Assembly (NCBI GenBank): GCA_964187785.1
Contig: OZ076409.1
Location: forward strand, 17,672,001-17,736,000
Direction: 5' to 3'
DNA: 64,000 bases
Source of the DNA: Amphiscolops sp. MND2022
Lineage: Eukaryota
Position 1 is the first letter of the stretch, and every line of letters starts with the position of its first letter. The position numbers and the translations under genes were made by a program. The notes under the pieces are model-generated. The model worked only from the letters and a program-made list of their open reading frames with translations. It searched no databases and had not been told where the DNA came from. Shown here piece by piece: positions 1 to 44,928 of this stretch.

Positions 1-80
1 TGTGTCGGTACTAGTTTTGTTGTAATTTTTGATTTGGGTGTTATCGACGTCTGAGTTGCTAGGGTGTGTAGTTTTTCGAC

Positions 81-1040
81 ATGTTGGTTGTGATTCGCCT
101 GTGTGTTTCAGTTGTTGCAAAGTGTCCTCGTTTGTGTTCTGCTGGACGAGATCGGAACTTGTGGTTCGAGCAGGAGTTGGCTGTTTTCCTTCGAGAGTTA
201 TTGTGTCTGGTTGTCGAACCCTCATCGTTACCACCTGATTTTGAAGTCCTCGCCGTGTTGAAATTGCGACTGGGCGAGAGTAAGCCTGTTGACAAGGCCC
301 GGTTTCAAGTGCTGTTCGGCCAGTATTTCCGCTTCGACGTGGTCAACCAGAAGCCTTTCTTTTATAAAGAAGTGCAGAATTTCCTCAGGACTGTGTGCGA
401 GGCTTGTATTGGCGATTATGACCAAGGGTGGGTTAAGCACCTCAGCTTGTTGCCGCTGGATCCTTATGCTATTCAGTCGGTGTCAATGGATCGGCTGACG
501 GACATCCTTGTGGGTACACTTTCTGTCCTCAGTTTTGGAGATCTATGCAGAGGAGACCATGGTGCCATCATCTTACAGCAGTATCGCGAGGTAGTCAACT
601 ACTTCAAGCATCGATGGGAGTCCAATGCTTCGGTGGTGCCAGTTATTGACGATGCCATGTCTTTGTGGTTGTCATATCCTTCGTGGGACCGGTGCCAAGA
701 ATTCCGGGGCATTGTGGATATTCTTTTTGTGGGAATGCTCCATGATTCGTATGCTGCTTATTTTCAAGATGTAGGAGGCACGGCCCTCGATGACAGTATC
801 ATGCTGTCAAGTTTGAACATTATACGAAGCTGGATGTCGAGTGGTTTCGGCGGGCACTCTCGACGCTCGATGATTGGTTTCGTTAGACACTGTAGCACTA
901 CAGACATGCAGGTTTCTCGGTTAACCGATGAAGGCAGAGCTATTCCTTGGGACCAATTGGTTAAGAGGGGGATTGACGAACTACTTGGGCGCTGTGTCAC
1001 TGTTCTGGAGACGACTGGTAGTCTACCTACTCGCCCATGA
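81..1040 (+). CDS. Antisense accessory ORF (319 aa, unknown function) in the 3' internal region of the Gypsy element, convergent with pol
   Basis: Uninterrupted 319-codon ORF with protein-like composition. Its stop is 12 bp from the pol stop at 1053. The opposite strand has only short ORFs here, so it is not a shadow of pol. No recognisable domain. Confidence 0.65.
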   Translation: MLVVIRLCVSVVAKCPRLCSAGRDRNLWFEQELAVFLRELLCLVVEPSSLPPDFEVLAVLKLRLGESKPVDKARFQVLFGQYFRFDVVNQKPFFYKEVQNFLRTVCEACIGDYDQGWVKHLSLLPLDPYAIQSVSMDRLTDILVGTLSVLSFGDLCRGDHGAIILQQYREVVNYFKHRWESNASVVPVIDDAMSLWLSYPSWDRCQEFRGIVDILFVGMLHDSYAAYFQDVGGTALDDSIMLSSLNIIRSWMSSGFGGHSRRSMIGFVRHCSTTDMQVSRLTDEGRAIPWDQLVKRGIDELLGRCVTVLETTGSLPTRP

Positions 1041-1052
1041 GGGATGGGTGTT

Positions 1053-4000
1053 TTATAGGTTTCTGTTTTTCAGAAGTAACTGTTGAAGTGAAGGCGTTCC
1101 ATGTAATTCATGCATTAGGAAATCAGGGTACGTGGTAGGTTTTGGATTGTGTCTGAGCCCGTATCGAGACATGGTGTGTCGTGATGGCGCTGGAGGGCGG
1201 TCATTTGTTTGGTGTTCAGAATTGTTCATGCTAGCATTATCCGGTTGTGGTTCTTGTGTTTCAGCTTGGCTTTCAGGTATGGAGATGTTTTGATCAGATT
1301 CTATGTTTTGCCGTTCGTAGTAGATCATTCCATTGTCTGCGTGTAACTCTTCGAAGTTTGATTGTTCAGGTAATGCTTGTTGTGGCTGTTCACGGACATG
1401 ACCGGGTAGGTTATTGTCAAATAACTCCTGTTCGTTGAGGGCGTCGGGATCTTCGAAATATTGTGATGCATTGTCTTGAATGTCTTCGATTGGTGCGTTT
1501 GGCGTGATTGGGCGAAGCGTCATTCTGTGAACGCATTGGGTGCGAAGAGTGCCAATCTTACGTATGATGTAATTTGAATTTGACAAGACTTTGACCACTT
1601 TGTATGGGCCTTCCCACTTGAATTCCTTGAATGGAATTTTTTCAGATTGCTGAGACAGTTTTTTGTTTAGCAGGAAGGTGAAATCATTCACTTTCAGAGG
1701 TGAAGCTTGCGCTTTTCGATCGTAGTAATTCTTGTATTTGTGAAAGGCTTCGATTATGTTGTCATGTGTTTGTTGGAATTTTTTGTTCATGTTATCTAGT
1801 ATTCCAGTGACGTCAGTAGTGTTACGTTGTTCGGTTAATGGATTGCCAAATTTGACGTCAAGGGCATTGAACGGGACACGTCCGTGGAAAATTTCAGTGG
1901 GTGTGCATCGGATAGCCTGGTGGTAGGTTGTGTTATGGGCCATTACGGCCATGTTGACGTATTTGTGCCATTGTGGTGAATCAGCTGAGATGTTGATTTT
2001 GAGGATTTGTTTCAGTTTTTGATGGGAACGTTCAACCATCCCAATCGTTTGTGCGTGTTTTACAGAGGCATGTTCGATTTTTATACCGGCAGACTCCATC
2101 AGGAAGTTGAGCAGTTGAGATGTGAATGTCGTTCCCTTATCAGTTAAGATTGTTTTGGGTACATACGATGGCTGCGTAAAGATTTGCATGAGTGCTTCCA
2201 CGACCGACTTTGTGTCTGGTTTACGGATTGGTATTGCGAAGTGGTACCTAGAAAAGTAGTCGCATGCAGTGAGTATGTGTGTGAATCCGTTGGATGGTGG
2301 GAGTTCACCGACTAAGTCAATTTCTAGTATGTCTTCTGGTCCGTTGCAGGGGTCGTATATTTGTTGAAGTGGTGGTGTGATTGCAGCTTTTCGGATTGGT
2401 TTTGAGCGGATGCAGTCCTGGCAGTTCGAGACGTATTGCAGTACCAGTTCGGAGAAGTTTGGTGAGTAGTACCTTTTACGCAGTTCATGGAGCGTTACAG
2501 CCAGGGTGACCTTGTAGAGGGTCATCGTGCAGGGATTGAATGATTTTTCGAATGGTTTCAGGGGGAGTGACAATTTGTTTACACTTAATTTTACCTGTAC
2601 CATCAAAAAAATTCCTGTACAAAACGTTGTTCACTACTGCAAGTCTTTTTTGTTTTTAACTAGTTTTTGGAAAAACTGACTTTCAAAGTTCACATGATTA
2701 GGAAGGGTTTCCTTTTGGTTCAAAACTCTAATCATGCGTTGGATGTCAAGGTTTACGTGTTGATCCTGGATGATTTGAAACTCCCCATTGGGTCATACCT
2801 GGTTTACCACGTTGTCATGAAGCTTTCGTCTGAATCTGGTGAACTTCATCTAGTCATGTTGCCCTGTGATGATGGGTGTGATTTGATGACGGATGGTTTC
2901 TATCCTCTCGAGAAACTGTCCACTCGATTCGTTGCTGCACATGGGAACCTGGTCCAGGATGGCGTTGATGGCTTCATTTTGTTTGGTGGTGGTAGTGTGT
3001 TGGTCATCAGGTATGTATTCTTCTTCTTCTTCGTCCTGCTTGGGTGTTCTTGATGCCAGGTCGATCTCGACGTGGAAGACTGGTATCTCGTCGTTGAGTT
3101 CGAGGTGGATTCTTTCCTCTGGTCGTATGTCAAGACGAGACAGGTAGTCTGCAGCAGGGTTCTCAGTTCCCGGAACATGGGCAAGTACGAATTCGAATTG
3201 GAGCGTCTGATCGCAGTAATTCCATAGCTTCGGGGGAATCCGTTTAGACTGAAAAAATCGGGTCAGTGCTTTATTGTCCGTCATTACTATTGTTGGTTTT
3301 TTGACACCCCAGAGTATGTGTGCGAATTCATCGAATGCGAAATGCATCGCCAGGAATTCCTTTGCGTACATTGTTAGGGACATTTGGCCTTCCGTGAATC
3401 GTTGGGATCCAAATGATACTGGAGCGTACGTCTTCAGTGGTCCATCGTTTGTTTCGGTATAGTATCAGGAGGACATATCCTGCCGCATGCTCGCTGGCGT
3501 CGCACATTATAACAAGCTGTTTATCGGGTAACGGCAGACGCAGCGAAAGCTTCGCAGCTTTGGCAAGATTTTCGTTAATCTCGAAGATGATGTCCTTGTG
3601 TTGCTGGGTCAACTGGAATTTGACGTCTTTTTGGAGTAGTTTGTACAGTGGGGTGAGTTTTTCTGCTAGGCGTGGTATGCACTGCCTGTAGAACTGGACA
3701 AACCCGATGTACCTTTGGAGGGTTTGATCGATGTGGGCAATTTGATCTTCTTGAGGAAGTCGTCGATCTTGTCTTCAAGTGGGGCGACACCCTTTGATGT
3801 GATGCTTCTCCCGAGGAAATCAATCTGTGGGTGGCCAAACGCACATTTTGACATCGACAATTTCAGTCCTGCTTTTTGGATTTGTTGAAACACGGCTTCA
3901 ATGTTTGACAGTAGCTCATCTACAGTGTGGGCAGCAATTCCAATGTCGTCGACATATTGGGCACATTTATCCGCTTCCACCAGTGCATCAACGTTTTCTC

Positions 4001-5835
4001 GCACCGTGCTGTTGAATGCTGATAGGGATCGGTTGAGTCCTTGTGCCAGTCGTAGATAAGCAAAAGTTCGACTTCCAAAATTAAATGCCAAGAGTTGTAT
4101 GGATTGTTCATCCGCCATCTGCAAACAGTGGTACGCCTGCGAGCAATCCAGCTTGCAGAAGTACTTCTTCCCTGCCATGTGCTGGGCGGCGTCGGCGATG
4201 GTGGTGACTGGATGATTATGCTGGTTGTAATCATTTTTCAAGAGGTGATTGATTCTGCGCAGGTCTACAAGAATGCGAAGTTTCCCATTGGGTTTGCGCT
4301 GAGCAAATAATGGTGAGGAATACTTGCTGTACGGCAACGTCGTGATGATCCCGTACTCTTGCATCAGCGCTAGTTCGACGAGCAGGTCATCTTTGAGGTT
4401 GGTGGGTGTAGGTAAGCTCTGCGCGTAGACTGGTTCATCATGCTTCGGAGTGAGTTTGATTTAGAAGTCAGTATTGATGCCTATGTCGAGGCGGTGTCTG
4501 GCGAATACATTGTTGTACTTCACAAGGAGGTTCTCAATCTGTTGTTGTTCGTGCTCATTCAGGATTGAGTTTTCCCATTTGAAGTTAGCAAGGAACTCCT
4601 TGCGCTGTTGGTCGTCTGCTGTTGGGTCCAGTTTCTCTTCTTCACGGAGTTGAGTGATTTCGTCATATATCCGCCTTTCAATGCGGTTCAGCTTGGACGG
4701 GTCATCACATGTCTCCGGGGTTGGGAACCATCTGCGGTTGGTTTCAGTGCCGGGTTCCTGGAACAGCTGGATTAGTACGTTGTTGGCTTCGTCCGGGTAT
4801 TTGGTTATTAGTGTCATATGTTCGTTTGACATCGGTTGTAGGTTTTTTGCTTGGTTGGGAGTCATTATCTTGAAGGTGGCCACTGTCGTGTTCGGGTTGA
4901 GGGTAATTGTATGGCAGGTGAGGTTGGTGATCTGGACATGGCTTTTCTTCTCAGTGATTTGCGTTAGGGCGGGGGACACCAGTAATTGTGTCTTCCTTTC
5001 AAAGGCATGAATCCACTGTGCCCTGGATTGTCCCGAGGTCGATTTCTGCTAGGACGGGGACAATGATTTGGTGGTCCGGTTGTATGACTGTTTACTGTGT
5101 CGTTCGTAATTCGATCATCTGGATTTTGTATCGTCCTCTTTCTGGTTTTAGTTGCAGGGTAATGTCCGGGAACTTGACTACGTTGTTGGCAAGGTCAAGT
5201 GTCACTGAATACTTTTTGAAAAATGACATTCCGATCAAGATGTTACCCATGGTTGGAAGAATCATGAAGGTTTCCTCGAATACTTTACCTCCGATGAAAA
5301 ATCGAAGTAGTACCTGTTTCCGGACTGGGACGATGCTTCCGTTTGCGATTTGGACTTTGAAGTCCGGTGCTGGGTACTCTTCGAGAAGTGCGGCTGGGTG
5401 TGCAGACAGGATTCGTCTGAGTTCGTCCTCTGACATTGCACTTCTTATTGCTCCTGTGTCGAGGAGTCCGTGGTTCTCGTATTCTCGGAATTGCAATGGG
5501 ACGTACAACATCTTGTCCTTTTTGTTTAATTGGAGTGTTGCTGTTAACACCTGGATCGCCACGTCTTTCTTTTGGTTCATTGTTTTCCTTGTACAGTCAG
5601 TCGTTGTAGTCGAGTTAGAGTGCTGTTTGTCTTCTGTCGTTTGTAAGTTCACGTCCGTTGGTTCGGAGGGAGGGTTCACTTTGTTATTGGTTGTTTCGTG
5701 GGTAGTTGTAGTCATATGTTTCTGATCCTGCCGAAGATCAGTTGCCCGGTTTTTGTAGTTCTTTGTTTAGTAGTATTTGTTCATGTTGCGCACTTTGTTA
5801 TTGTAATAGTCAGTCGGATGACGTGGCTTCAGAAG
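1053..5835 (-). pseudogene. pol: Gypsy pol (PR-RT-RNaseH-IN), disrupted by several stops and frameshifts
   Basis: PR LLDTGA...ILIGMSF (5092-5715); RT SSPLFAQRKPNGKLRILVDLRRIN, KLDCSQAY, YVDDI (3666-4364); RNase H CDASEHAAGYVL, KEFLA, TDNKAL, NPAADYLSR (2850-3612); IN CQDC, IDLVG, TDKG, GMVERSH, WEGPYKV (1053-2606). Split over several frames, with in-frame TAA near 5767 and at 4461. Confidence 0.95.
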
Positions 5836-5841
5836 TTTTTT
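5835..5841 (-). promoter_or_regulatory. Putative -1 ribosomal frameshift heptamer A AAA AAC at the gag-pol junction
   Basis: gag ends CCA AAA AAC TTC TGA. The -1 frame (KLLKPRHPTDYYNNKVRN...) is the frame of the protease ORF, with one intervening TAA. Confidence 0.75.
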
Positions 5842-7029
5842 GGCTGGCTGGATGATCCTTCGGTGAATTCCTGTTGGTAGTAGTCGTCACTGGTTTGCTG
5901 TTGTTGGTCCCCTGGTGCAAGTTCGTTCATTTCATTTGCTGGGTAGGGGTAGTTGTGTGCTCTGCGGAAGTCACGTCGGAAGTCCCTGTTTTCAGTTGTG
6001 GTTTGCCTATTGTATGGCACGCTTCCGTAGGCGGAGGTTTGGGGTATTCTGTAACGGCAGTCTTTTGCGGAGTGACCTGTATAACCGCAAATTTGGCAGA
6101 CCAGTTTGGCATTGTATTTTGGTTGTGTTTCTGCGTTGTTGTTTTGCTGTTCGGGCTTTTTCTGTGCTTGTGAGTTGTTGTTGCCCGCTGCTTCGTCACG
6201 CAGTCGTTTTCGGCACTCAGCCCATTTGTGTCCGTAAATTGCGCAGTATCTGCAATTGCCATCGAATTTCTTTTTGATTGTTGGTCGTTCGTTTTCGTTT
6301 CTTTTCTGAACAACTGGCTTGTTTGGGACTTCTTGTGTCTGGATAGCTTGGTTGAACGGTTGGAGGAGTTGTTGATTTGGTAGTAACTGGGCATATTGGT
6401 ATCTTCTCTGGACGAATGTTTTGATGTCTTCAATGCTGGCATTGTGTTTTCCTGCAATTGCCAGTTCGTTTTGGAGCTGGATCGGTAATTTGGCAAACAG
6501 GAAGGTCTGGACAATTCCCTGTGCCTTTTCGCCGTAGGCTTGTTTGGCAATCTTTTTGTAATTGGCGAGGAAGGTACTGAATGACTCGGTAGTCGGATCG
6601 TATCGTAGCTGGTCGAATTTGAACTTCGAGACTTCTGAGAGTTCTTCCTTGGCGTATTCTTTTTTGAATGCCGTCAGTATATCTCTCAGTGTCGTTTCTG
6701 TTGTGATTGTCAAGGTTTGCCAAAACTCAATTGCGTCATCCCTGAGAAGACTCTGAAAGTAGTTGAGTTTTTGTTCTTCAGTGAGTTTGTGGGCATGTGG
6801 TCGTAAGTGGTTGAGCAATAAATGCTCGAATTCATTGTATTTGTCTCGATTTCCCTTGAATAGAAGTACTTGGGTCTGCAGGATTTTTGGTTGAGTCAAG
6901 GTTTCCCCCATTGCACTGCGGAGATGGTGGATTTCCGTCATCATATCTGCTATCTGCGGAAAACTTTCGTCACTCCTTGGTGTTCCGCTGGGTGGTGTTG
7001 TTCGAGATCCTGGTGGACGTGGGTTCGGG

Positions 7030-7042
7030 ACTCCTGTCACCA
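7030..7042 (-). promoter_or_regulatory. Primer-binding site TGGTGACAGGAGT (tRNA-Leu-like)
   Basis: Directly follows the LTR end ...CCGACA. One mismatch from the complement of a typical tRNA-Leu 3' end (TGGTGTCAGGAGT), compared from memory. Confidence 0.65.
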
Positions 7043-8177
7043 TGTCGGAACGACTGTCAGTACTTGTAGTTGCTGAATTTAGTCTGTTCCCCTCTCCATT
7101 AACGGAGGCAAACTGATTAGTTAATATAAGGACTATGCTGGTAAGGTCTCCGATTTATCTATTTATCTCATTAAATCGTTGGTCAATGCTATAATTACTG
7201 CTATTTTGTTGTCTAGTTAATACGTCGTCAGAGTCAAGGTCTACGATTTGGTCTCTGGATAAGATATCAGGGAAACTGGATTCACTTTCATTATCGCTTG
7301 ATCTGTCCATGTTTTCAGCTTCTAATTGTCTATTTTGACTACTTTGAGATCTAGTAGTTACCATGAAAAGTACGAAAGTTCTAAGTTGAATTGAAATGCG
7401 TTAATGTAATGCTAAGGATTGATAATTCGTAAGTAAGATAGTAGGCAACTTGTTCTATCAATAGTTACAATTCGTGAGTGACTTCGGTTTTACCCGATTG
7501 TGTAACTATAAAGGTGTGTCAGCACCTTTTTTTAGCCAATGACATTCGATTTACTAATTGCTATTTAATTGCACTTGACGACTGGTGGTTACAGCCGTGA
7601 CGGGTGATAATCGGCGTTTAATTATTCATGTTTGATCTAGTATGACCGCAAGCACCAGTCATTTTAGCACGCAATTGTCTCAATTACCTCTTAAACTGAG
7701 GCTTTACTACCGTGTATCCTTATCATCATGGTAACTGATTCAATTATCGTTTGGAGGTTAATTACTACAAGGCATTGTACAAATTGCTGATATAAATGAA
7801 TGAAATGTTGTTGTTATGAATGATCGAGTATTCTGGTAATACTTTACATGTAATATAAAAAATGGATGAAGAATGATTAAATGATGAACTATCACGATAG
7901 CTGATGACTGATTGTTCCAGTCTTATATGTGAGAATCACTTATGATGACTGAATATTTCAGTCTTGGTTTCTAACGATGCACAATAACATGAATGAATTT
8001 AGTATTGATGACTGTTAGTTCCAGTTGTTATATTTTCAACTGTATTGTTCGAGGAATAAATTACTGCAATGTATTTTCATGATGATCTGTATTTTAGGGA
8101 GTTTGATGTATGAATTAATATTTTAGAGTTCGTTTAGTTCCTTCATGCTTGGCGGGCATGACATCCGCCCTGCTACA
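7043..8177 (-). repeat. 5' LTR (~1135 bp) of the Gypsy element
   Basis: Minus strand begins TGTAGCAGG and ends CCGACA (TG...CA), then the PBS. The start resembles the TSD-delimited solo LTR (TGTCGCAGG plus a short GC hairpin). The partner LTR is not in the window, so boundaries are inferred. Confidence 0.75.
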
Positions 8178-32600: not shown

Positions 32601-32689
32601 ATATTTACCATTCCCATGCCTTTGTTGGGGGTGTATTTGCAAACCCATGTTAAGGCGTTTAATGCTTTTTGTACTTCATGACGACCTAA

Positions 32690-33213
32690 CCCTTGTTGAA
32701 ACTGCCTTAACTTTTTGCATGTATTTTATTGTTGGCAGCAACTTTTGTTCTGATTTTCTAAAACTCTTACGGAAACTTTCATGTATTTAACTTCTATCAA
32801 GTTGCTTGAAAGATTCACAAAAGTATTGGCGGCAATTTTAAGCCTTGAAGTTTTGCAGGTTTTATTAAGCAGCAGTTATCATTTTAAAAGCAAAGCAGTT
32901 GCTTTCGGATGGACCGCTAAATTAGTGCAAAACAACTTCAGTCGCGTAATGGACAGCAACTTAGCCTCATGTTCAACGCGCTATTTGAGAAGTGGTGATC
33001 ACGTCAGATGAGTAGTTGAGGAAACAAAGTGTGGATACCAAATGATCGTGTCGGTAATGTAGTGGAATGTGTTTTCAAATTTAATTGCAGTAGTGGAAAA
33101 TGCAGCGTAATGATTTACCATCCGAAGTTCACTGAATTTTCAATTTTTTTAAAAACAAACAGCCTGCAAACAGGCCTGCAGCATGTAAAAAGTTTCTGTA
33201 GTTTCAACTAGGA
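32690..33213 (+). mobile_element. Non-autonomous DNA transposon (CMC/EnSpm-like), family B copy 1
   Basis: TIR CCCTTGTTGAAACT...AGTTTCAACTAGG. Its reverse complement aligns along its length with 43600-44148. Confidence 0.8.
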
Positions 33214-36137
33214 AAGTTACTGTAAATTACAGGGATAAAACAGAGTAAAAAAATATTCTCTTCTTGCTCTTTGACATTCATTTTGCCCAAAAGTTTCCAA
33301 TTTTTCTGTTCCTCCAAGCGAGACTTTTTGAAACTCTCTGAGGTAATTTTAATGAGCCTGAGAAGACAAAAATCTTGTATACTTTTTGCTGACAATTATC
33401 TTCTACTGCTCAGTTTCTTTCCGATTCGGTCCCATCAGATACTCTATGGTAACAAAAAGCTTCAGACAGTTAATATCACAATTGAAGGCGCATTTTCAGA
33501 GCACGCATATGCCAAAAAATTCTCAGAGTCCCAAAAACTACCGATCAAACAAATCTTCCTTGATCAATTTTGAAGCCTTTCTTTACCTTTCACATTTACC
33601 ACTCTCTGGAAATGATCTCTTGAAAAATGAACAGTCACACTGTGGTAATTCCATTGAAACAATATTTTATGGAGTAAAAAGTGAATGATTTGCATTTTGT
33701 GATAATTCTGATGTGTAAATTCCAAAGGGGGACCTCTTCTGGAAAAGTGTTAGTCAAAGGTTAGAGATCCGATTCCAAGGTGCAAAATTCTTTGATACGA
33801 ACAACGGTTTTCGAGTTTTCGAGTTTTTGCATGCTAAATTTCGGAATATATCAAGCGTAATTAAAGCCAAGTGTTATAACTTCAGTTTGCTCCTATGAAC
33901 TTTAGGTCAATAGCTTATATAAAAAATAACATAAGGTTTGAAATGAATTTTACAGAAGTCGAGTATCTTCAGCTTTTTGGTAACCCATATGAAAGCCTTT
34001 CTTCAAGGATGAATTTTGGTTGTACCTTTAAAGCAATCCAAGATTGCAAAAATCTATTCAAATAAAGAACTGCTTGAAAGATTTGCCGATTGCTTCCATT
34101 TTGGAGTTGGGAATATTTGAAAGATCCACTTTTGAAGCTTTTATGATTTTAAACATCAATTATATAGGTAGCTTTTTTGAAATTTTTTGATAGTTTGTTA
34201 ATATGCAAGCAACACCTGATTGATCGTTTCTATTCAAAGACCTCAATTTGCCTTTTATAATTTGACAGAAAAAAGCTTCTAGATTGTTTTGATCCGATCT
34301 TTATCAAGTTTTCAATCAGGCATTTTGAATTTCTAAATAAACTCGATTTTGGAGAACCTTGACACTTCAAAACGTAGCTGTTTGGTTCCAGTTGTTTTAG
34401 CTGATGATCTTAGGCCACTTTTAGGATCGTAACGACTTTGATTTCGAACAATTTTCAAAACGCGAACCGTTCTTGAATTCATCTGAATTTCAACGAACTC
34501 GAGATTTTTTGACTCAAACAAATCAAGGATTTGACTAGAATTCATCCTTTTATGGAAATACATCAGATGCTAGTACTTTGAAAAACACATGACTCACGGG
34601 GACAAGTTTCCCCAAATGCCTGAAATACTCCCCACTAGACGCCGAACTATTTTTCATCTCCTCAAAATTTCCAATCAATAATCAAGCAGGCATTTTTTGT
34701 AGCACTTCCTGTGGTTCTGATGATGTATGATTGATCGATGCAATTAGCTAATTCAAAATCCTGAAAAATCAATAATTCAGCCAAGTTGGATTCGGTTTTG
34801 AGTGACATAACATGTTGAACAAACTAAATTATTCATGCCGGTGCAAAAGTGAAAGGAAGTCTGAATTTTTGCCAGTTGCAATTTGTAGGAATTTTTAATC
34901 AAAAGCATGACTGGCTCCATGACGCCCATTGCATCTTGTTTCTGCTTCTAAGGAAAATCACTGCATCTTCGATGTTTGCACTTATCTTTTCCATGATACA
35001 TCCATGTACCTTGGCGTATCCGTACAAAAGTATCCGAAACTCCATATTTGTATGTTTTGCGAGAAAACTTTTTAGCTCCCTAAAAAGAAATGTAATAAAA
35101 TAGGGATTTCCCGTTAAATTTTGAATGATCGGTGGCGCTAATTTTGTTGCAAATTAGTTCAAACTTTTATTTTTCTTCTCTAGTTATTCAGTTTCTTCAG
35201 GATTCGTTTTCTTTATCGGTTATCATGAATTTTTGGCAAAATACACAACTGTGAATTTTGTTTTCTTTCGATGGCACGAAAAAACTAAACCTTAAAATTC
35301 AATACACCATCTACTGTTCACGAAATTAATGTTATTGGGACATATACATTGTGTTTAATACCAAAAGCCTTGAAAAAAAAATATATTTTCCGTTCGGACT
35401 GACGATATTTTGGTCTTTTCATCTACTTGTCACAAAAATTCCCTCAGGATAACTTTTCCACAAAATAACCTTGAAAACTCTATGCCTCTTTGTAACAGGG
35501 GAAAATTACAGGAAACTAGCGAAGCAGGAAATTCAGAGGCAAAAGAATACGCCTAAATTTTCAAATCTACATCACTGAGAAGGTAGCAAAAAGTTGCTGC
35601 AATTTGAAACCTTTAGAGGGAGTATTATCTATATTCTTTTCTGAATCTAAAAGACAGACTCATGTCGCCACTTTTCATCAGGATGCAATAAAACGGAACT
35701 AAATGGGAGCCAAGGTGCCTTTAAGAAGGAGATTCATAACCTGCACTTAATGATTTTATAGAACAGTTTTCTACTAGTTGAGCAGAAATGTCTTCACGAA
35801 TATCGATTATTTTTGTTTCGCGTGATTGAATAACTCAGTGGACATTTGAAAAATGGACACAAATTCTTAATATGCAGACTCTTCCGCTCCTCGGATCCCT
35901 ATCGTGCTTTAAATATGAAGAATTCAAGTAAATTGGGAGACAATTTGATCCCAAAAAAACGAAAAATTTCGATTTGAAGTCACCAGTAAGGCTAATATTC
36001 TCTCCATATTCAAATACAAAACGAAAGAAGACAAAGGTAACCAAGAATAAACATGGTGCTATATTTTCGCCGTTTTATCTGGGAACATTCAGTATTAGTC
36101 AAGAGAACATTTTATATGAGAACCCAAGAACTAGTTT

Positions 36138-36433
36138 TTAGTCGGCGCTTTTAGAATAAAAGAGCCTGACTATTGCAGTCACTGTTTTTTTTCTATTTTT
36201 TTGGTTTTTCTTGAAGACAGACTGGAATGCGACGAAATTTTCGTTTAGTTTGCTCAACTAAACGAATATCTGGGAAACTCATCTAAGTTATTGCAAAGGG
36301 CCTCCTTTCATTTTTTACCTTTTACACGTAACATACAAAAACGGATGAGAATAAAGGGTCCCCTTTCTCAATTGTCTCCGGCGTTGTGAGACTTTTTCAT
36401 AAAAGTTTCTTAATGTCCTCGAAGGGTCACCCC
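36138..36433 (+). mobile_element. Helentron/DINE-1-like element 5' part, interrupted by an LTR element
   Basis: Starts TTTAGTCGGCGCTTTTAG...GACTA and carries the family core (GGCGTTGTGAGACTTTT, AAGGGTC). Confidence 0.6.
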
Positions 36434-37450
36434 TGTGAAATGCAGAGGCCAAACTGCCAATCACCAATTGCAGAACTGTCATAGTCTGAGAGCTGTCTAG
36501 TACTTAGGTACAAACAATTTCTAATTACTTCAATTATGCCTTGACCTGTTTATGTTAATGTGTTGTTGTATACCATTATACTTTGAGGATCCCATACACC
36601 ACAGTTGAATGAAAGTTCCATATGCTACACCGTTTTAACCTTAGAAATTGCGATCTTGACATGGCGCAGTAAGCAAGATTCACATCTCTTTTCACCAGGG
36701 TACAAAACCCTTTCATCACTAAAATCAACCACCAATGACCACCACAAATATCCGATTACCCTATCGAGAGGATACCGGACTCGACAGGAAGAACAATAAG
36801 CACCCAAAGAGTGGACCGAGACATTTCGGCATTACACATAAAAGTATCTATAATGTGGATATCAAACAAATATTGACGAATGATACGGTACGAACCGACT
36901 CCTTGGTTTCGAAAGAACCAGAGATCAAGCAAGACTCTATCGGGGGCGCAGGACCGTCAGCAATTGAAATATTCACCAAGGGAGAGTTTAGGACGAACCC
37001 AGAAACTATCAAAACCGACAAACTAATACAGTTATTTCGGGAATACTCTATGCTACTTGCCCAAAAGAAATAACTACCACAGCCGTGTTTGAGCAAAACA
37101 AGAAGACCACTAGACACCAGAAGAGCATTGAAAAAAATAATAACCTCAGAAAAAGCTGCGATTTCAGACATATAAAAGAGATCTCCTGATAACGAAATTC
37201 ATCACAAGCATTACTGACAAAAAGCTTCGAGAGAAAATAATCTGTGAAAAAACCATAAATTTGGAAACAACCGTAGACTTTGTTACTCAAAACAGCTACA
37301 ACCGACGACATAAACAATCTGCTAAACCACTCGCATTGGCAAAAGACAAAGAAATAAAACAGGAACCAATCCAAAAAATCAGGAACCAATCCAAAGAAAA
37401 CACCGGGAAAAACGGAAAACACCGGAAAGAAACAACGGAATTCTCATTTT
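36434..37450 (+). mobile_element. Truncated Gypsy-like element: LTR (~36434-36661), PBS and decayed gag
   Basis: TG...GACA followed by TGGCGCAGTAAGCA (tRNA-Ser-like PBS). Gag-like fragments GAGPSAIEIFTKGEF...LIQLFREY, LPKRN and LETTVDFVTQNSYNRRHKQ. The LTR start is a guess. Confidence 0.65.
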
Positions 37451-37734
37451 TCGTTTGATATTAGATTTTCTCAATATATGTCCACCAATATATTTTTTAA
37501 TACTATGCGAATTTTTGACGTTATGTCCGAAAAAAATGCGTTCCACTAAAGTTGAGGTTTAGGTTCAAAAATACTGTGTTGTATTCGAATATTGCGCTAT
37601 GTCCGTAGTAAATTAGGCTTTACTAAGGAGGAGGCCGAGGTTCTACCATGTCGTCAAAGTTGCATAAAAAACTATGAAGCACCCACGAAGAAACGAACTC
37701 TCTGTGAAACAAATATATAAACTTGCTCTGTTTA

Positions 37735-38944
37735 CCCTGGTCATTTTCCATGGAAATCCATGGATGAAGTAGACGTTCTCAAGGATGAATCATGCGATTC
37801 TGTCAGGCATTATTATCGACAACTCGGAACTTGGTGCAAAACTCCAGAGTAATTATGGGTGACATTGTTTCAAAACGTCACTACAGACAAACAGGATAAC
37901 CAATGGTGACTTTTTTTTTGCGAAATTAACAAAGCTATTAGCATTTGTTGTATACCGTGTATAACATTTAAAAAATTGAGCAAAACGGATTCAGTTATAA
38001 CATATTTGAGCTGTAATTCTTATGGGTTTGACAAAATAAAAGTAGTTAAAAATCAAAATAATCGCTTCGCGAAATGACGTGCTGAGACATTACGTAATTG
38101 AACAGGACCCTATCTGGTTCTTAGTTACTTCTTCCAGAAAAAAAATTGAACAGAACAACCCTTTCAGTTCTATCTTTACGAGCCTCCCATGATTGACCTA
38201 TCATGCAAATCATACTGTTTTCACATATGGAAACTAGCTGGCATACAAAAAACATCAAGTGTTCATGTCATGACTTCAATATGTTCCTTGTATGACTTGA
38301 ATGTTTTCCTTGAAAGAGTTTAGTAAAACTGTGATTATTTCTAAGAAACTTTTCGAATAGGAATGACTTTCGCCAGTTAAAGCTGAAGTTGGAGCCGGAG
38401 AACGCTTCATCTTGACCTTCAGTTTCGAAACATTGATGATTTTTGTGTACGCAAACTATTGAGAGGATGCAAAAGTATTCGACGTCTTTCTATATTAGCA
38501 TTAACTCTTTTGTTGCAGCTATCTCCCTTTTCAGGGAAATTTGTGCTTCGAACGAGATCAATTATGAAAAACTCAGCATCAGATACACCAAAATGGTAAT
38601 TGTGATGGTATTCTTACGTTTTTGATAAATATTGGTTAAGAAGCAGCCAACAACAAGTTCATCAACCTGGGCGTTAATTGGCTACGTTATGCTAATTTGC
38701 CATGTATATGAAACATTCAGTTCATAAAAGGATTATAACATGGGAACTTTTCGCTCCATAGCAGGAACATAGTATGGAAAACGCGTTTATCATAGAATGA
38801 CCATAGTGTGATCATTTTTGAATTGCATGGATTTGTTTTTTTGTTTGTGGGGTCTTGTATGACTGAGCTGTTTCACTGTTTCCATGAATCACCATATGAC
38901 GTTTCATGATATGAATGTTTTTTTTGTATGGAGGTTAACCCGGT
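37735..38944. mobile_element. Decayed CCC...GGG-type element(s) rich in CATG repeats; related ends at ~25130-25340 and 48478-48615
   Basis: CCCTGGTCA...CCATGGAAATCCATGG start. The TGTATGGAGGT(T/C)AACCCGG end is shared with 25321-25339. Confidence 0.4.
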
Positions 38945-39405
38945 TTCAAAGGTTTTTTCAATTTTTTTTACACTATGGTCCCTTTTTTAGAAAAAGACAT
39001 TGATAATTTTGAAATGACGTCGTACTTCCAGGATTTCTAGCCGTTTCTAGTTTGGTTGTTTCTAAATTTCAATTCCAGACGTCGGATGTCATAGTCCACT
39101 TCTTGAACGCAGTTTTACATCACATAAAAGTACATTCCTATACATACGTGCAAGTTTGACTAGTAAATGAAATAGTATTGATAACAAAAATATTTTAACA
39201 AGTACTTATTCGCAAAAAATATCCCAACGCCATTTTCAGTTGAAATATTTCCCTATATGATCCTAATGACCAAGAGATATTATTTTTGCTATTATCTTCA
39301 GCAACTCATATTGATTCACAAAACTAAAGGTTGCAAAGCTTTTTCGTGGGATTTCCTTGTGCCTTCCTGAGAAAACGGAAAAAGGGCTGTACCAATGCGC
39401 TTCTT

Positions 39406-40449
39406 CCCTAAGTTACAAAAATCACAACTCTTGCAAAATTCTTAAAAGAATTCTTGTAAGATGTTGTAAGAAAATGCATTTTTAGAATCTAACTCTTGCA
39501 AAAATCTTGCAAGATTTGCATTTTTCTGCTCTGAATGTTACAAAAAATGCATAAATCCGACCATTTTTTTTGCATTTCCTGCCTCAAAAAAATTGAACGG
39601 CTGCAAAAGAAAACTATCTGTACTCGAAAAATGACACAATTGCCCATATTAGAGCATCTAGATTTTATATTATCGGAATGCCTTATTTGCATCATTAGCA
39701 TTGTTTGATGTTATATTGTTGTAAAGCTTTCGCTTACAACATTAAAGCCCTGCGTGGGGTCAGTGCCTCTGAGAGAGCAATGTCCTCCATTCTCAGCAGT
39801 CTCATGACTAGTTGAAATGGGCTGGAGAAGAAATGAAACCGATAGTTGAATTTTGCTAGAATTTTCAGGGTTTTTATAGTTTTCAATATGACATTGCACA
39901 GGTGGTTTTGTAGTATTTTTACTGATTTTCTCCATCACAGTAGCTGACAGCAGGTTCGGGTTAGAACCGTTAGAAAGCCCTTGAAATGTATTTTCAATTG
40001 GTATCATGTTCATATTCCTATCATCATTAGCTGAAGAGTTCTCGGAGTTTTTGTCCGGAGTTTCATAGCTGGAATACGTTATAGTAATTTCTGGGGTAAA
40101 ATTGCATGTAAAATTTTCTTGCTCAAAATTAACAATTTGGAGCCTTTTGCTGGGATCCTGGGACAGTTTGTGCATTGTAAACGGCAACTGTGGCTGTTGT
40201 TGCTGGTAGTTTGATGATTTTTGAAGTTTTGGTCGAATTAACACATCACATTTTTTGTAAAAATTTCTTACCAAAAAAATGCATTTTTTGCAAAAATGTT
40301 ATCAGAATCTTGTAAGAAATGTTCGACATTGTAACAAATTTGCAAAATTTGCGATTCTTGTACAAACTTGTAAGATTCTTGCAAGAAATGCAAAGCTGAC
40401 GAGAATTTCGGAAGAATTTTGCAAGATTTGTGATTCTTGTAACCTAGGG
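39406..40449 (-). mobile_element. Non-autonomous DNA transposon (CMC/EnSpm-like), family A copy 1
   Basis: TIRs CCCTAAGTTACAAAAATCACAA / TTGTGATTCTTGTAACCTAGGG, subterminal TCTTGCAAGA repeats, 2-bp TSD TT. Confidence 0.85.
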
Positions 40450-42155
40450 TTGTTGATATTGAATAACTAAAATCGATTGAAAATTTTTCAGCAATTGATT
40501 GATTCTATTAGCCCAAGTATTGATTATTAATTTAGCGCATATGGTGGAGAGTTCCAAAAAAATTTTCCACGAATAAATGAAGGTTGAATTTTTCCAAAAC
40601 TCAAGACAAAATAAATCACGACTGCTCTCCATTTCAGTTTATCAATGCATCGATCAAACATTTGTTTTCTTGATTTTTTTTCTAATCCTAAAATTATTGC
40701 TCTTGGTTAAAATTCTAGTTTTTTCTTCTGTAATCTCGATTTAAATGGCCTTAAGGATTGAAATTCCAACTGCTTGAACTATTCTCATTTGAGAAAAAAA
40801 TAGATGCCGGTACGCAGCTTCATTTCCTCTTCAGACAGAAAAACATCGCTTTGTTTTCATAATTAATTTGAAACATTCTTCATCTTCTTAAAAGAAGCCA
40901 AGACAACACAGGCTCATTTCTAATTCATTTCAATACCATAGAGAGAACGATATGTTATATATACCGTTGAGAAGACACTGAGCTTAGAAAATAATCTAAT
41001 TTTAAAAAGTGGAATTTGGAGGCAGGAGCCGACTAAAGAAGGAATTGAATCACGGATTTTTTTCAGAGCGAACATTCTCAGTTGCTATCATAAATGTTGT
41101 TGTAAAATGCATGGATCATGCATGCAAGTTTTTCGTGTGATGAGTCACCTGCGATTTTCAGTTTACTTGCAAAAAAACCATCGATGTATCCTGTAAAATT
41201 TTAAACGCAACCTGAGGAAAGGTTGTTAGTGAGATTGCAACATCTGAGATGGCTCAAAAATAGTATTTTTGGGCAATTATTCGTCGATTTTTCGAGAAAA
41301 GGTGTCAAGAAACTGTTTGAATTACGTCATGATCAAAAGAATATGTCTGACAATCTATCTGCAAGGTACGTTCAGTATAGAAATCTGACTGGCCTTGAAA
41401 TTATAATAATGGTTATTGGATTCCGCCCGGCTACAGAAATATTTTCGTCAGAGATTTCTGAAGGTTCAAAATAATATTAAACTTCCTAAAATATAATAAA
41501 TGTGACATGAAATCCAATATAAATGTACCTGGATCGAAGGTGCTACTAATATTTCCAAAACGGTAGAACAACAATTTTACTTATTCTTACCCTCAAGATT
41601 GGTTGCATGGAAAAAGTGCAATTATGTATCATGGTGCAGTCATGTCTTTCATCCATTAATTCTTAAATGATAGTGAGTGAAAAGTGACTATCAATATGAA
41701 TAGTTTAAAAAACCCAAAAGTTTCGATATTTATGTTTGATTTTAATGCTTCATGCATATTTTTTCATGATTCAGAAACAGCGCTGTGGAAGGTTACGTAA
41801 CTATAAAGGAAGGCAACGTGTTGAAGATTTTTCTTGAAACCTTTTTTTTTGTTTTTAACATTTTTTTGAAATGTGAATTGACGATGTAAATGAACTCAGC
41901 ATATTTGAAAAAAAGTTTTCTAGCAAACAATGCTGTTTGCTCAAAAATTATATTTTATCATTTGCTTATACATATTTTGCAAGTTATTGCTCCACATATA
42001 TCAACTTCTGGTATTCCAAAACTACCAATTTTTCCCATTTATAATAAGCAACCGTTTTCATCGGAGACAGAATTAATTGAGTGCGCCGAATATTTGTATG
42101 ATGGCTAGCATTTCGATCTGCAGAATCTTCAAAATCATTATTGAAAGTGTCAGTG

Positions 42156-43061
42156 CCCTAGGTTACAAGAATCACAAATCTTGCTAAATTCTTCCGAAAT
42201 TATTGCCAACTTTACATTTCTCACAAGAATTTTACAAGTTTGTACAAAAATCGCAAATTTTGCAAATTTGTTACATTTTTTTACAAGACTCCGATAATAC
42301 TTTTGCAAAAAATGCATTTTTCGTAAGAAATGCTTCCAAAAAATGTGATATGTTATGTCGACCAAAATTTTAAAAATCATCAAACTACCAGCAACAACAG
42401 CCACAGTTGCCGTTTACAATGTACAGACTTCTCAGGATCCTAGCAAAAGGGTGAAAATGGTCAATTTTGAGCAAGAAGAAATTACATGCAATTTTACCCC
42501 AAAAATTACTATAACGTATTCCGGTAACCCACCACCAAACAACAATGCATTAATTTACACCAATGCAAAGGCAGCGTCTGACAGCTCAAATTACGACTCA
42601 ATGGGTAACTCTGGTTCAAAAATCGTTTCAAGCGACACACCCAATCTTGGAATCGAGCAAGTAAAGGGAAAAAACCCACTTCAGGAAAGTCAGTCTGAAA
42701 ACTATAATTCTACATCTCCAAGTGGTGAAAGTTCTGGAGCTATTACTGTTGCGAACTAAATGCATCGTACTACGCTTCTCAATTCTAGATGTTCTAGAGT
42801 AGAGAAGCTTTAATATGGGCAATTGTGTCATTTTTCCCGTTCAGATCGGTTTTTTAGCAGCCGTTTAATTTTTTGAGGCTGAAAATGCCATTTTTGTAAG
42901 AAATATGTCAGATTTATGCATTTTTTGTAAGATTCTGAGCAGAAAATGCAAATCTTGCAAGATTTTTGCAAGAGTTAGTTTCTAAAAATTCATTTTCTTA
43001 CAAGATCTTACAAGAATTCATGTAAGAATTTTGCAAGAGTTGTGATTTTTGTAACTTAGGG
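42156..43061 (+). mobile_element. Non-autonomous DNA transposon (CMC/EnSpm-like), family A copy 2, inverted relative to copy 1
   Basis: TIRs CCCTAGGTTACAAGAATCACAA / TTGTGATTTTTGTAACTTAGGG, 2-bp TSD TG. Confidence 0.85.
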
Positions 43062-43128
43062 TGCAAAAGCGAAACATCCATGATGTTCGGTTTCAAAAAT
43101 CGATGATTTTTACTGTTTTTTTTGTTAG

Positions 43129-43354
43129 ATTAAAAAATCTAGAGGAAGTGAAACGAGGGAGAGACGATAGGTGGTACGTAGTCAACTGGCCCCCCAATCA
43201 GGACTACGCGGAGATCATCTACAGACGCAAAGTGAGGGGCGCCTTCTACCAGAAGATGGAGTTGCAGCATTTCCCCGTCGACGTGCAGGCAATCAGTGTA
43301 CAGGTGAACACGGACCTCGACAACTCAGAAATATCACTCAAGGAGGATGACCAG
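43129..43354 (+). CDS. Exon of Cys-less pLGIC containing the beta6-beta7 (Pro) loop
   Basis: Poly-T TTAG| acceptor and CAG|GTAACT donor. The phase-2 join gives IWEPRLRLKN. YRRKVRGAFYQKMELQHFPVDVQAISVQV has the FPxDxQ motif without flanking cysteines. Confidence 0.9.
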
Positions 43355-43599
43355 GTAACTGATGACGTCACTGAATTTATAATGATTTCAACAGTTTGTT
43401 TGATCGTACGATACAAATGTTTGGGTGTTTGCAGATCGTCAGGGTTGTTCCAGTAAAACAAAATATAGTTCTCATTTTCGGTTCACAATTGAGCGCGTTT
43501 GAACCTTATTTGGGTTGTTCGTCGTACCTAAAATAGAAATAATAGTATATGTGGACGTAATCCTAAATAAATAGGGCGACCTAAATAAATAGAGCAGTA

Positions 43600-44148
43600 C
43601 CCTAGTTGAGACTGCAGGAACTTTTTACATGCTGCAGGCCTGCATGCAGGGTAATTGTTTATAAAACCTAGAAAATTCAGGGTAATTCAGGTGGTAAATC
43701 TTGTAGAATTACACTGCATTTTCCACTACTGCATTTAAATTTGAAAATAGATACAACATCATCACCGACACGACCTTATTGTATTTACAATTTGCTTTCT
43801 CAACTACTCATCTGATGTGATCACCGCGTCTCAAATAGGACGCTAAACATGACGGTATATTGCAGTTTATTAGGTGACTGAAGTAATTTTGCATTAAAAT
43901 GGCTGTTAAACTGAGAGCAATTTATTTGCTTTTAAAATTAGAACTGCTTCTTAATGAAACCTGCAAAACTTCAAGGCGTAAAATTGCCGCCAAAACTTTG
44001 ATGAATCTTTCAAGCAGCTTGATAAAAGTCGAATACAACAGGTAAATATTTTCTCATTAAAGTTTCCGTAAGAGTTTTAGAAAATCATAATAAAAGTTGC
44101 TGGCAACATTAAAGTACATGCAAAAAGTTCAAGAAGTTTCAACAAGGG
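43600..44148 (-). mobile_element. Non-autonomous DNA transposon (CMC/EnSpm-like), family B copy 2
   Basis: CCCTAGTTGAGACT...AGTTTCAACAAGGG, 2-bp TSD TA. Inverted homolog of 32690-33213. Confidence 0.82.
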
Positions 44149-44928
44149 TAGGGACAGTCGGACTAGAAGTGGACCTAAATTAATAACCAGTATAGCGCAC
44201 AGTGGACCAATTAGTGATGTCACAGGTATGAATGAAGTCAAGAGGTAATAAACCGGACTTATCAAGTATCGTCTAGTATAGTTAGAAAAGGGGTATTGAA
44301 GCAATGAGGACATGAGTCTGACAGTAACGTATTGCAATCTATTCGGTTAAGAAATGTAATGTAACGTGTTAAAAATACTTGTTTGAAGACACTCCTTCTG
44401 TCGCCTATCTGTCGCATTTCAATTTGCAGTCGGCGCTTTTTGAAGAAAACAACCAACTACAGCAGTTGTTTTTTTAAGAACATCGAACTGACAGACTTCT
44501 ATGAGCAATTCTAAGCAACTACCAAGTTCTAACTTAGTAACCTATAACTGCCAATTGACCTACAGGTTGAAAACGGGTTTCTTGAGGTCGGAGAAGCAGG
44601 AGTACATGGGTTCGAGTCTCGCATTAAACCGAATTTATTAATGCTTGCAAAAGTAAGGGGGAGACAAAAAGGGGAATTTTTGGCATTATGCGACTTTTTT
44701 CTGATTTTTTAAAAACCGAAATGTTCAGCAGAAACCTCATGCCCTAATGTTCAGCAGAAGCAAAACGTTCTTCGAGCATAGATGACCACTTTAGATGTTT
44801 TCGGCATCATGCGACAAACCGAAATTTAAAAACACGCTGAATTTATATGAAAAATTTGCCAAACTTTGTTTTTCTGTAGAGAAAAATCGTTTTCGGAGCC
44901 TTGAGGGTGAACTCTTTGTTCATTTCTG

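Follow-up and report, generated by a model that had tools for sequence, protein, structure and literature searches.

What lies at this locus? The window, by which we mean the whole 64,000-nucleotide stretch of Amphiscolops sp. MND2022 that was analysed (contig OZ076409.1), carries a decayed copy of a Ty3/Gypsy retrotransposon. Its features are as follows.

8164..8168, minus strand: 5-bp target-site duplication GCGGA, repeated after the 3' LTR (flanks compared).
7043..8163, minus strand: 5' LTR, 1121 bp, with TGTC...GACA ends (end-to-end alignment with the element's own 3' LTR).
7365..7545, minus strand: putative promoter and leader, with a CCAAT-type box some 176 nt ahead of the ATG and no ATG in the last 180 nt (pattern common to sister families; presumed start site).
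7044..7364, minus strand: LTR-encoded N-terminal 107 codons of Gag (open in sister copies; dN/dS between subfamilies).
7341..7364, minus strand: codons 1–8, motif V-x-T-R-S, a candidate nucleosome acidic-patch anchor (motif count and predicted docking on host H2A–H2B).
7101..7196, minus strand: predicted amphipathic helix, about codons 57–88, the best-conserved part of the LTR segment (pLDDT 85–89 for residues 61–80; pN 0.05–0.09 for codons 61–90).
7155..7157, minus strand: stop codon at codon 70, private to the 5' LTR copy in the window (sister comparison).
7041..7043, minus strand: in-frame ATG formed by the last LTR base and the first two primer-site bases (sequence; the same in all families examined).
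7030..7042, minus strand: primer-binding site, 13 nt, tRNA-Leu, which also encodes Gag residues M-V-T-G (tRNA match).
5829..7043, minus strand: gag core of 404 codons, a capsid-like helical domain and two CCHC knuckles, open in the window copy (frames, Pfam and fold model).
5835..5841, minus strand: slippery heptamer before the gag stop (sequence).
1053..5766, minus strand: pol in pieces, with protease, RT, RNase H and integrase in Gypsy order, broken in the window copy (Pfam on window frames).
72..1040, plus strand: antisense open frame between integrase and the 3' LTR (frames on the window).

More antisense frames extend to the left of the window. The element's own 3' LTR also lies there, at G000:C1:17667254-17668375, preceded by a purine tract. 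It aligns to window positions 8163–7043 at 97.9%: of 1129 aligned columns, 8 of them past the LTR edge, 23 are mismatched. The right edge is thus at 7043, where the initial annotation had put it, while the left edge, claimed at 8177, is at 8163, 14 bp away. The alignment does not end upstream of 7364, as it would for a shorter LTR with a different primer site. The same end base is found in 13 of the 14 3' LTRs examined (own included) and in both intact solo LTRs; one 3' LTR is truncated at 7139. Among further elements of several families the 3' LTR ends at this junction in 16 of 20, 10 of 10 and 3 of 4, the misses being 3' LTRs that are absent, or only partial, in the DNA fetched.

The classification follows from the paired LTRs with TG...CA ends and a short target-site duplication, the tRNA primer site after the 5' LTR, the purine tract before the 3' LTR and the order protease–RT–RNase H–integrase. 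On the window frames RVT_1, RT_RNaseH, rve and Integrase_H2C2, of which the RNase H and integrase families are of Gypsy type, score above the Pfam cut-off; the protease match falls below it (E 5e-5). The RT homologues listed, at least 120, were unnamed sequences. The putative CCHC knuckles would fit Ty3/Gypsy (Metaviridae), with zf-CCHC on Gag below the Pfam cut-off, and so might the fold: Foldseek against the PDB returned no match at E<=0.001, and the best, if weak, was the Arc capsid domain (E 0.03). In young copies pol sits in the −1 frame relative to gag, and frameshifting presumably occurs at the slippery heptamer. DUF1759, a family associated with BEL/Pao, is just over the cut-off on Gag, yet the pol frames match RT_RNaseH, Integrase_H2C2 and Integrase_p58_C and no BEL family, and BEL/Pao was rejected.

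Where does gag begin? As the initial annotation had proposed, the ATG at 7364 lies about 320 bp inside the LTR, in frame with gag, and 107 codons precede the junction codon A|TG. Read from the sequence, the frame begins there, crosses the LTR end and continues over the tRNA-Leu primer site, 13 contiguous bases of which match the 3' end plus CCA of a genomic tRNA-Leu(CAG); the primer site is coding sequence. In 17 of 19 sister 5' stretches (from 17 elements, two with a duplicated 5' end) no further stop interrupts the frame between the stop upstream and the junction. Among the young copies compared, which were partly picked for long open frames, openness is not an unbiased count; their LTR edges were not preselected. 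The stop at 7155–7157, read from the outset as a plausible CAA>TAA change, occurs in none of these 19 sister stretches, nor in the 13 mappable of 15 3' or solo LTRs, the element's own among them. Stops between 7364 and 7043 are thus not general among the sisters. Shuffled sequence of equal composition was free of stops 48 times in 100,000.

Is the segment under selection as protein? Between five young subfamilies its dN/dS is 0.05–0.17 at dS 0.65–2.0, and in four of them the differences by codon position number 80/81/271. All 10 subfamily pairs align over its 321 nt with no gap, whereas the ~820 nt upstream contain 4–14 gaps, mostly frame-breaking, in those pairs. The other five frames hold 2–25 stops. 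Codons 1–18, which precede the second ATG, are themselves under selection (pS 0.26/0.64, pN 0.08/0.23), and the first six are among the most conserved. The same layout recurs in families with only 44–63% gag-core identity, whose LTRs measure 930 to over 1800 bp and contain 103–114 of the codons. The primer-site peptide stands at residue 95–125 in 74 of the 120 homologues listed, and in the sequences of more distant Gags at residue 114 (P0319) or 189 (P0383). Across codons 101–127 synonymous change drops from about 0.5–0.9 to 0.15–0.25. With the LTR edge, the open sister frames, this purifying selection and the conservation in distant families, the proposal that the LTR end and primer site encode Gag is well founded.

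Nevertheless the segment evolves far faster than the gag core, with identities between families of 15–46% against 44–88%. Constraint is weak in some comparisons: dN/dS is 0.59–0.97 among three close copies of one family, which differ by few changes (core 0–0.17), it is 0.38–0.59 when L066 is compared with L110/L112, and two older copies give 0.40. Between distant families dS is saturated.

The upstream sequence is consistent with a start at the LTR ATG. Over 11 LTRs, a set that includes six close kin and has no shuffle control, the 150 nt leading up to the start contain one ATG, compared with 52 in −600..−301, and a CCAAT-type box lies at −176..−202 in 10. An initiator-like AATTCAA before the ATG (9 of 11) was set aside, its distance being variable and the pattern fitted to the same LTRs. 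AATAAA or ATTAAA occurs near +197 in four of nine LTRs and is absent from the other five, so the candidate poly(A) signal is not placeable. Transcription would start no more than about 150 nt upstream of the ATG, which would put the coding segment in R/U5. U5 is defined as the RNA that comes before the primer site; with that site at about codon 108 of gag, all that precedes it belongs to the LTR. Each replication would then copy the coding segment into the 3' LTR as a by-product. We consider it very probable that Gag has the layout described and is translated from the LTR start codon.

How does this compare with known systems? Ty1 of Saccharomyces cerevisiae (Pseudoviridae, Ty1/copia) likewise has its primer site inside the GAG frame, in the portion of PMC4974528 available to us, and a short 5' leader and disordered Gag N-terminus before the capsid (bioRxiv 10.1101/2023.02.27.530227, in part). 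From a leader of 53 nt (PMC3592414, excerpt) and a primer site at nt 94–104, about 13 codons precede the primer site by arithmetic, compared with 103–114 here, which bears out the earlier remark that in Ty1 only a short stretch is involved. The likeness is one of layout, with the primer site within the gag frame and the gag start upstream of the LTR end, and not of membership. Ty1 is primed by initiator tRNA-Met, as Ty1/copia elements usually are (PMC8515867, excerpt), and has integrase before RT, whereas the present element has tRNA-Leu and RT before integrase; Ty1/copia membership was rejected on both counts. The Gag N-terminus of Ty1 is prion-like, while here it holds a motif and a helix. 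In Ty3, again from the available part of PMC4974528, the primer-site segments adjoin the UTRs, outside GAG. Two further contrasts with Ty3/Gypsy retrotransposons are that the element encodes about a fifth of Gag in its LTR and that the space ahead of its 3' LTR is taken up by antisense frames.

What might the LTR-encoded segment do? Ahead of the capsid it would form an acidic, disordered linker that bears an arginine-anchor motif at its N-terminus and a single amphipathic helix; in the fold model the capsid-like fold starts only near residue 174. The helix probably serves self-association. A protein-atlas look-up of the segment gave unnamed clusters only, at 0.91 and with a low recognition value, and was uninformative. 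The motif, overlooked in the initial annotation, reads V2-x-T4-R5-S6 in the window copy, an arginine anchor with a hydrophobic residue three positions earlier. Of the 74 homologues, 62 carry [LT]R[SN] within their first 20 residues (shuffles: mean 3.2, maximum 9), and most have the hydrophobic residue at −3, but not the TELRSG group. The 12 homologues lacking the motif include some that start downstream, and one group (P0049, P0053) is entirely without it; the P0053 group had no match in the genome at E<=1e-200.

The spacing matches that of the anchors of IE1 (M483/T485/R486/S487) and LANA (M6/L8/R9) as given in the accessible text of PMC9040877. The same source shows the features shared with HCMV IE1-CTD, KSHV LANA and the prototype foamy virus Gag CBS, namely an anchor arginine that has T or L immediately before it and a hydrophobic residue at −3. 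In a complex model, residues 1–8 on the host H2A–H2B patch scored 0.62, against 0.00 for the best of three controls; runs agreed in at least 46% of contacts, with partner pLDDT at least 47. Gag R5 is placed on host H2A E65 (canonical E61), T4/S6 on E68 (E64) and V2 on Y61/A64, the H2A and H2B residues used by the viral tethers; the confident contacts do not include H2A D94/E96 (canonical D90/E92). In calibration, 51 of 78 solved microbial pairs attained the mark, compared with 2 of 108 mismatched ones; for eukaryotic pairs the counts were 39 of 65 solved and 2 of 126 unrelated. Peptides and disordered chains fall outside this calibration, and the peptide fold is uncertain (pLDDT 48–49). The pass may be recall of solved LANA, IE1 or Gag–nucleosome structures. 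Unlike those viral tethers, whose foamy virus member, the CBS, sits in the C-terminal domain of Gag, the motif lies at the extreme N-terminus of a retrotransposon Gag, is LTR-encoded, and has its binding predicted. As with foamy-virus Gag, this Gag or the incoming particle would be anchored on chromatin, here by the motif, a proposal that we put forward tentatively, as nearly an even call.

Might the arginine motif instead be a nuclear-import signal or another short docking motif, in a Gag that still starts in the LTR? Short basic motifs are degenerate, basic N-terminal motifs of this type are common in Gags of Gypsy elements, and a model can pass through likeness to solved complexes. Yet the clade alternates IE1-like and LANA-like spellings with the hydrophobic-x-[LT]-R spacing constant, and the model puts the right residues in the right pockets. 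We regard a non-histone role as possible, though on balance doubtful.

Does the main structural Gag start at the junction ATG, with the LTR segment an optional extension from the upstream ATG, which leaky scanning would either use or bypass? The junction ATG, not remarked on in the initial annotation, is in frame and in strong context in every family examined (purine at −3, G at +4), while a pyrimidine occupies −3 of the first ATG in the window family and in the L094, L102 and L106 families. A capsid-like fold that begins so far downstream would also suit two isoforms. However, the LTR end and primer site force the junction ATG, so its conservation is uninformative; the 3–10 additional ATGs between the two would catch scanning ribosomes; and the high conservation of the first six codons speaks for a start in the LTR. 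Two isoforms are therefore unlikely.

What of the 3' and solo LTRs? The initial annotation expected a promoter plus an open N-terminal module pointing into flanking DNA, and structurally the module is there: 36 of the 41 ends examined keep at least 100 open codons that point into the flank. An active promoter driving a useful module would be the functional half of that expectation. One could suppose that the frame is kept because such LTRs express a shortened Gag, which would either restrict transposition or be fused to host sequence; Ty1 offers a precedent in its truncated-Gag restriction factor p22 (PMC4551931, in part). The read-through tails, however, are short and random (median 13 codons, range 1–187, n=35). 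The p22 of Ty1 is without the Gag N-terminus. Among older copies the 3' or solo frames are open in 11 of 15 against 17 of 19 for 5' frames, no better than passive decay, and continuity with gag accounts for the selection already; this explanation is very unlikely. An open frame in the 3' LTR is expected as a by-product, since U5 there is copied from the RNA 5' end at each replication, and the read-through is probably passive. Finally, the A-rich LTR might hold an open frame by chance or as a relic, as the segment's low complexity and poor conservation between distant families could suggest. This is refuted by the shuffle rate, a dN/dS near 0.1, the lack of indels and a length class that stays the same in families whose core identity is under 50%, and its probability is negligible.

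Taken as a whole, we think it likely that gag starts in the LTR, is likely translated from the LTR ATG and has its first eight residues, as modelled, docking on the nucleosome acidic patch. A bolder version, decidedly improbable in our view, would have a whole Gypsy clade encode in its LTR both a peptide that docks on histones and a helix that oligomerises, with an IE1/LANA-type anchor tethering Gag to nucleosomes, so that 3' and solo LTRs would be promoter-plus-tether cassettes giving mini-Gag competitors (copy-number control) or a nucleosome-binding N-terminus to host genes.

Literature searches of titles and abstract starts, with most subscription journals and repeat databases outside their coverage, found no paper on a Gypsy gag starting deep within the LTR; supplements of transposable-element surveys could hold such elements. 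A similar search (most subscription journals again outside coverage) found none on a retrotransposon Gag binding the acidic patch, and likening the N-terminal [LT]R[SN] motif to the IE1 and LANA anchors is new here. LTRs are treated as non-coding, in wording that the available part of the ICTV profile applies to Ty1/copia (PMC8515867). Gene models that place the start of gag downstream of the primer site would lose a fifth of these proteins, including their most conserved N-terminal motif. Where coding frame, integrase attachment site and primer site overlap, the sequence serves three uses, measurable in the drop of synonymous change across codons 101–127. If the motif does bind the acidic patch, a Gypsy retrotransposon would share a chromatin tether with herpesviruses and foamy viruses, and that tether would offer a cheap, direct test of how elements without a chromodomain reach chromatin.

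Does the gag frame of this element begin within its LTR? The leftward-pointing body of the LTR retrotransposon occupies 1–8163 (minus strand) of the window (G000:C1:17672001–17736000); its 3′ LTR lies 3.6 kb to the left of the window, and the full element measures 12.9 kb. Because the two LTRs are 97.9% identical, have TGTC...GACA termini and share the same 5 bp flank, we place the 5′ LTR as follows.

8163–7043, minus strand: 5′ LTR, 1121 bp, from the alignment with the element's own 3′ LTR, its ends and the flanking 5 bp.

This alignment bears out both the right edge at 7043 and the inclusion of ATG 7364 in the LTR, as the initial annotation had it. The LTR ends at the equivalent of base 7043 in 13 of the 14 3′ LTRs examined and in 2/2 intact solo LTRs. 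Just past the edge, 13 nt match the 3′ end of a genomic tRNA-Leu(CAG). A pattern search with this 3′ end returned 808 genome matches, mostly in tandem arrays, a long one of ~296-bp period extending over G000:C8:35595871–35648957 and beyond; of the dispersed matches, 1/4 was called a tRNA. Two retrieved stretches (L048, L049) carry partial LTRs, cut within or ahead of the LTR frame, in tandem arrays of 840-bp and ~1150-bp periods.

By structure the element is a member of Ty3/Gypsy: the Pfam matches in the window frames, namely protease (below cut-off), RT, RNase H and integrase, follow the Gypsy order. Since these frames are broken, the window copy is, as read from its sequence, dead. In young copies pol lies in the −1 frame relative to gag; slippery-type heptamers stand right ahead of the gag stop at 5835–5841 of the window and in the copies L050, L066, L094 and L106. 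Several antisense open frames lie in the interval from integrase to the 3′ LTR (window 72–1040, plus strand; L013 2111–5126, plus strand), one with a weak zf-BED match (E 0.035). Elsewhere in the window, nested long inverted repeats at 32689–44149 (arms to 330 nt, 78–96%) suggest an old fold-back or DNA-transposon structure.

From ATG 7364, 107 codons lead to the junction and continue without a change of frame into the 404 codons of the gag core, crossing the LTR edge and primer site as had been proposed. The single stop, at codon 70 (7155–7157), is private to the window copy, for the position is open in 19/19 sister 5′ stretches and in 13 of 15 3′ or solo LTRs, the 13 being those that mapped. 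The entire LTR segment is open in 17 of the 19 sister 5′ stretches; only 48 of 100,000 shuffles of it are stop-free. When the gag core was the sole query, the 150 scored matches included 15 identical-scoring copies whose frames run to 517 codons and 17 whose frames run to 533, in both cases far beyond the length of the core. We retrieved 34 further elements, partly picked for long open frames; their 3′ LTR terminates at the same junction in 16/20, 10/10 and 3/4, one with its final base changed, the five misses having no 3′ LTR, or a partial one, in the retrieved DNA. Families with 44–63% core identity keep 103–114 codons within LTRs of 930 to >1800 bp. The primer-site peptide falls at residue 95–125 in 74 of the 120 homologous proteins listed and, judged on protein sequence only, at residue 114 or 189 in more distant ones. 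We conclude that the Gag-coding LTR end is a real feature.

Is the segment under selection as protein? Among five young subfamilies its dN/dS is 0.05–0.17 at dS 0.65–2.0, and that of the gag core 0.02–0.05. It has no gaps in 10/10 subfamily pairs, against 4–14 per pair, almost all frame-breaking, in the LTR upstream; its other five frames hold stops. Constraint extends over the 18 codons preceding the second ATG. Synonymous change falls to 0.15–0.25 across codons 101–127, where the attachment and primer sites overlap the reading frame. Two results count against constraint: identity between families is 15–46% for the segment versus 44–88% for the core, a much faster divergence, and dN/dS among three close copies from one family is 0.59–0.97, on 4–17 changes. 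In L050–L058 pairs dS is higher in the segment (0.65–2.0) than in the core (0.3–1.3), a hint that the segment changes faster or that subfamilies have exchanged LTRs.

Where does transcription start? Summed over 11 LTRs, the ATGs upstream of the Gag start number one within 150 nt, 23 from 150 to 300 nt and 52 from 300 to 600 nt away. A CCAAT-type box lies at −176 to −202 in 10 of the 11 and at −195 to −210 in four more; the eleven include six close relatives, and the counts carry no shuffle control. ATG depletion and box position together suggest a start just upstream of the Gag ATG. A short Gag isoform might begin instead at the junction, where a second in-frame ATG has good context; this is possible but not favoured, because the LTR end and the primer together dictate that ATG, and 3–10 ATGs intervene between the two starts.

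The layout resembles that of Ty1, whose primer site lies within GAG (PMC4974528) and whose leader is 53 nt (PMC3592414). Ty1 thus has ~13 GAG codons before the primer site, whereas the window element has 107, about eight times more LTR coding sequence. The ICTV Pseudoviridae profile terms LTRs non-coding (PMC8515867), and a literature search of partial coverage found no Gypsy gag starting deep inside an LTR.

What might the segment do? The predicted Gag structure (mean pLDDT 58) is disordered over the segment save a helix at about residues 57–88; the core best matches, weakly, the Arc capsid domain. The Ty1 Gag N-terminus is a prion-like domain (bioRxiv 10.1101/2023.02.27.530227). At the extreme N-terminus, 62 of 74 homologues carry [LT]R[SN] (shuffles reach 9 of 74 at most, mean 3.2). 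The spelling differs by family, some having V-x-T-R-S and others L-R-S-G or L-R-N-G. The nucleosome acidic patch is contacted by IE1 M483, T485, R486 and S487, T485 and S487 sitting on H2A E64, and by LANA M6, L8 and R9 (PMC9040877); foamy Gag tethers through R540 (PMC6042332). Modelled with H2A and H2B of the same genome, window Gag residues 1–40 reached a score of 0.62, the best of three controls 0.00; runs agreed to 46% or more, and partner pLDDT was 47 or higher. This mark is passed by 51/78 solved versus 2/108 mismatched microbial pairs and 39/65 versus 2/126 eukaryotic ones, with peptides outside the calibration. Gag residues 1–8 are predicted to lie on H2A 57–68 and H2B 41–45 and 102–110, R5 meeting the E61 equivalent of H2A and T4/S6 the E64 equivalent. 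Since similar complexes are already solved and peptides lie beyond calibration, the model shows a likeness to acidic-patch anchors, not binding; we hypothesize that Gag may tether through this motif. The same partial literature search found no acidic-patch anchor in a retrotransposon Gag. A second candidate anchor, Y-x-L-R with the spacing of foamy Gag Y537/L539/R540, occurs in the integrase C-terminus of three families (window ~1140–1170, minus strand; pol tails of L066 and L106), and none was seen in the last 60 residues of L050 and L094 pol. Histone genes form a ~3.63 kb tandem unit on many contigs (L114–L119 and others listed).

Why should coding sequence sit in an LTR? U5 is the RNA from the repeat to the primer site, and by the established mechanism reverse transcription copies it into the 3′ LTR every cycle. 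Because U5 runs up to the primer site, Gag codons before that site lie in the LTR. The initial annotation saw 3′ and solo LTRs as open N-terminal modules facing the flank; openness holds, with at least 100 codons open in 36 of 41 such ends, and the frame meets a stop a median 13 codons into flanking DNA. These frames need no function of their own. With the primer site at codon 108 of gag, all preceding codons belong to the LTR and are recopied into the 3′ LTR at each replication cycle.
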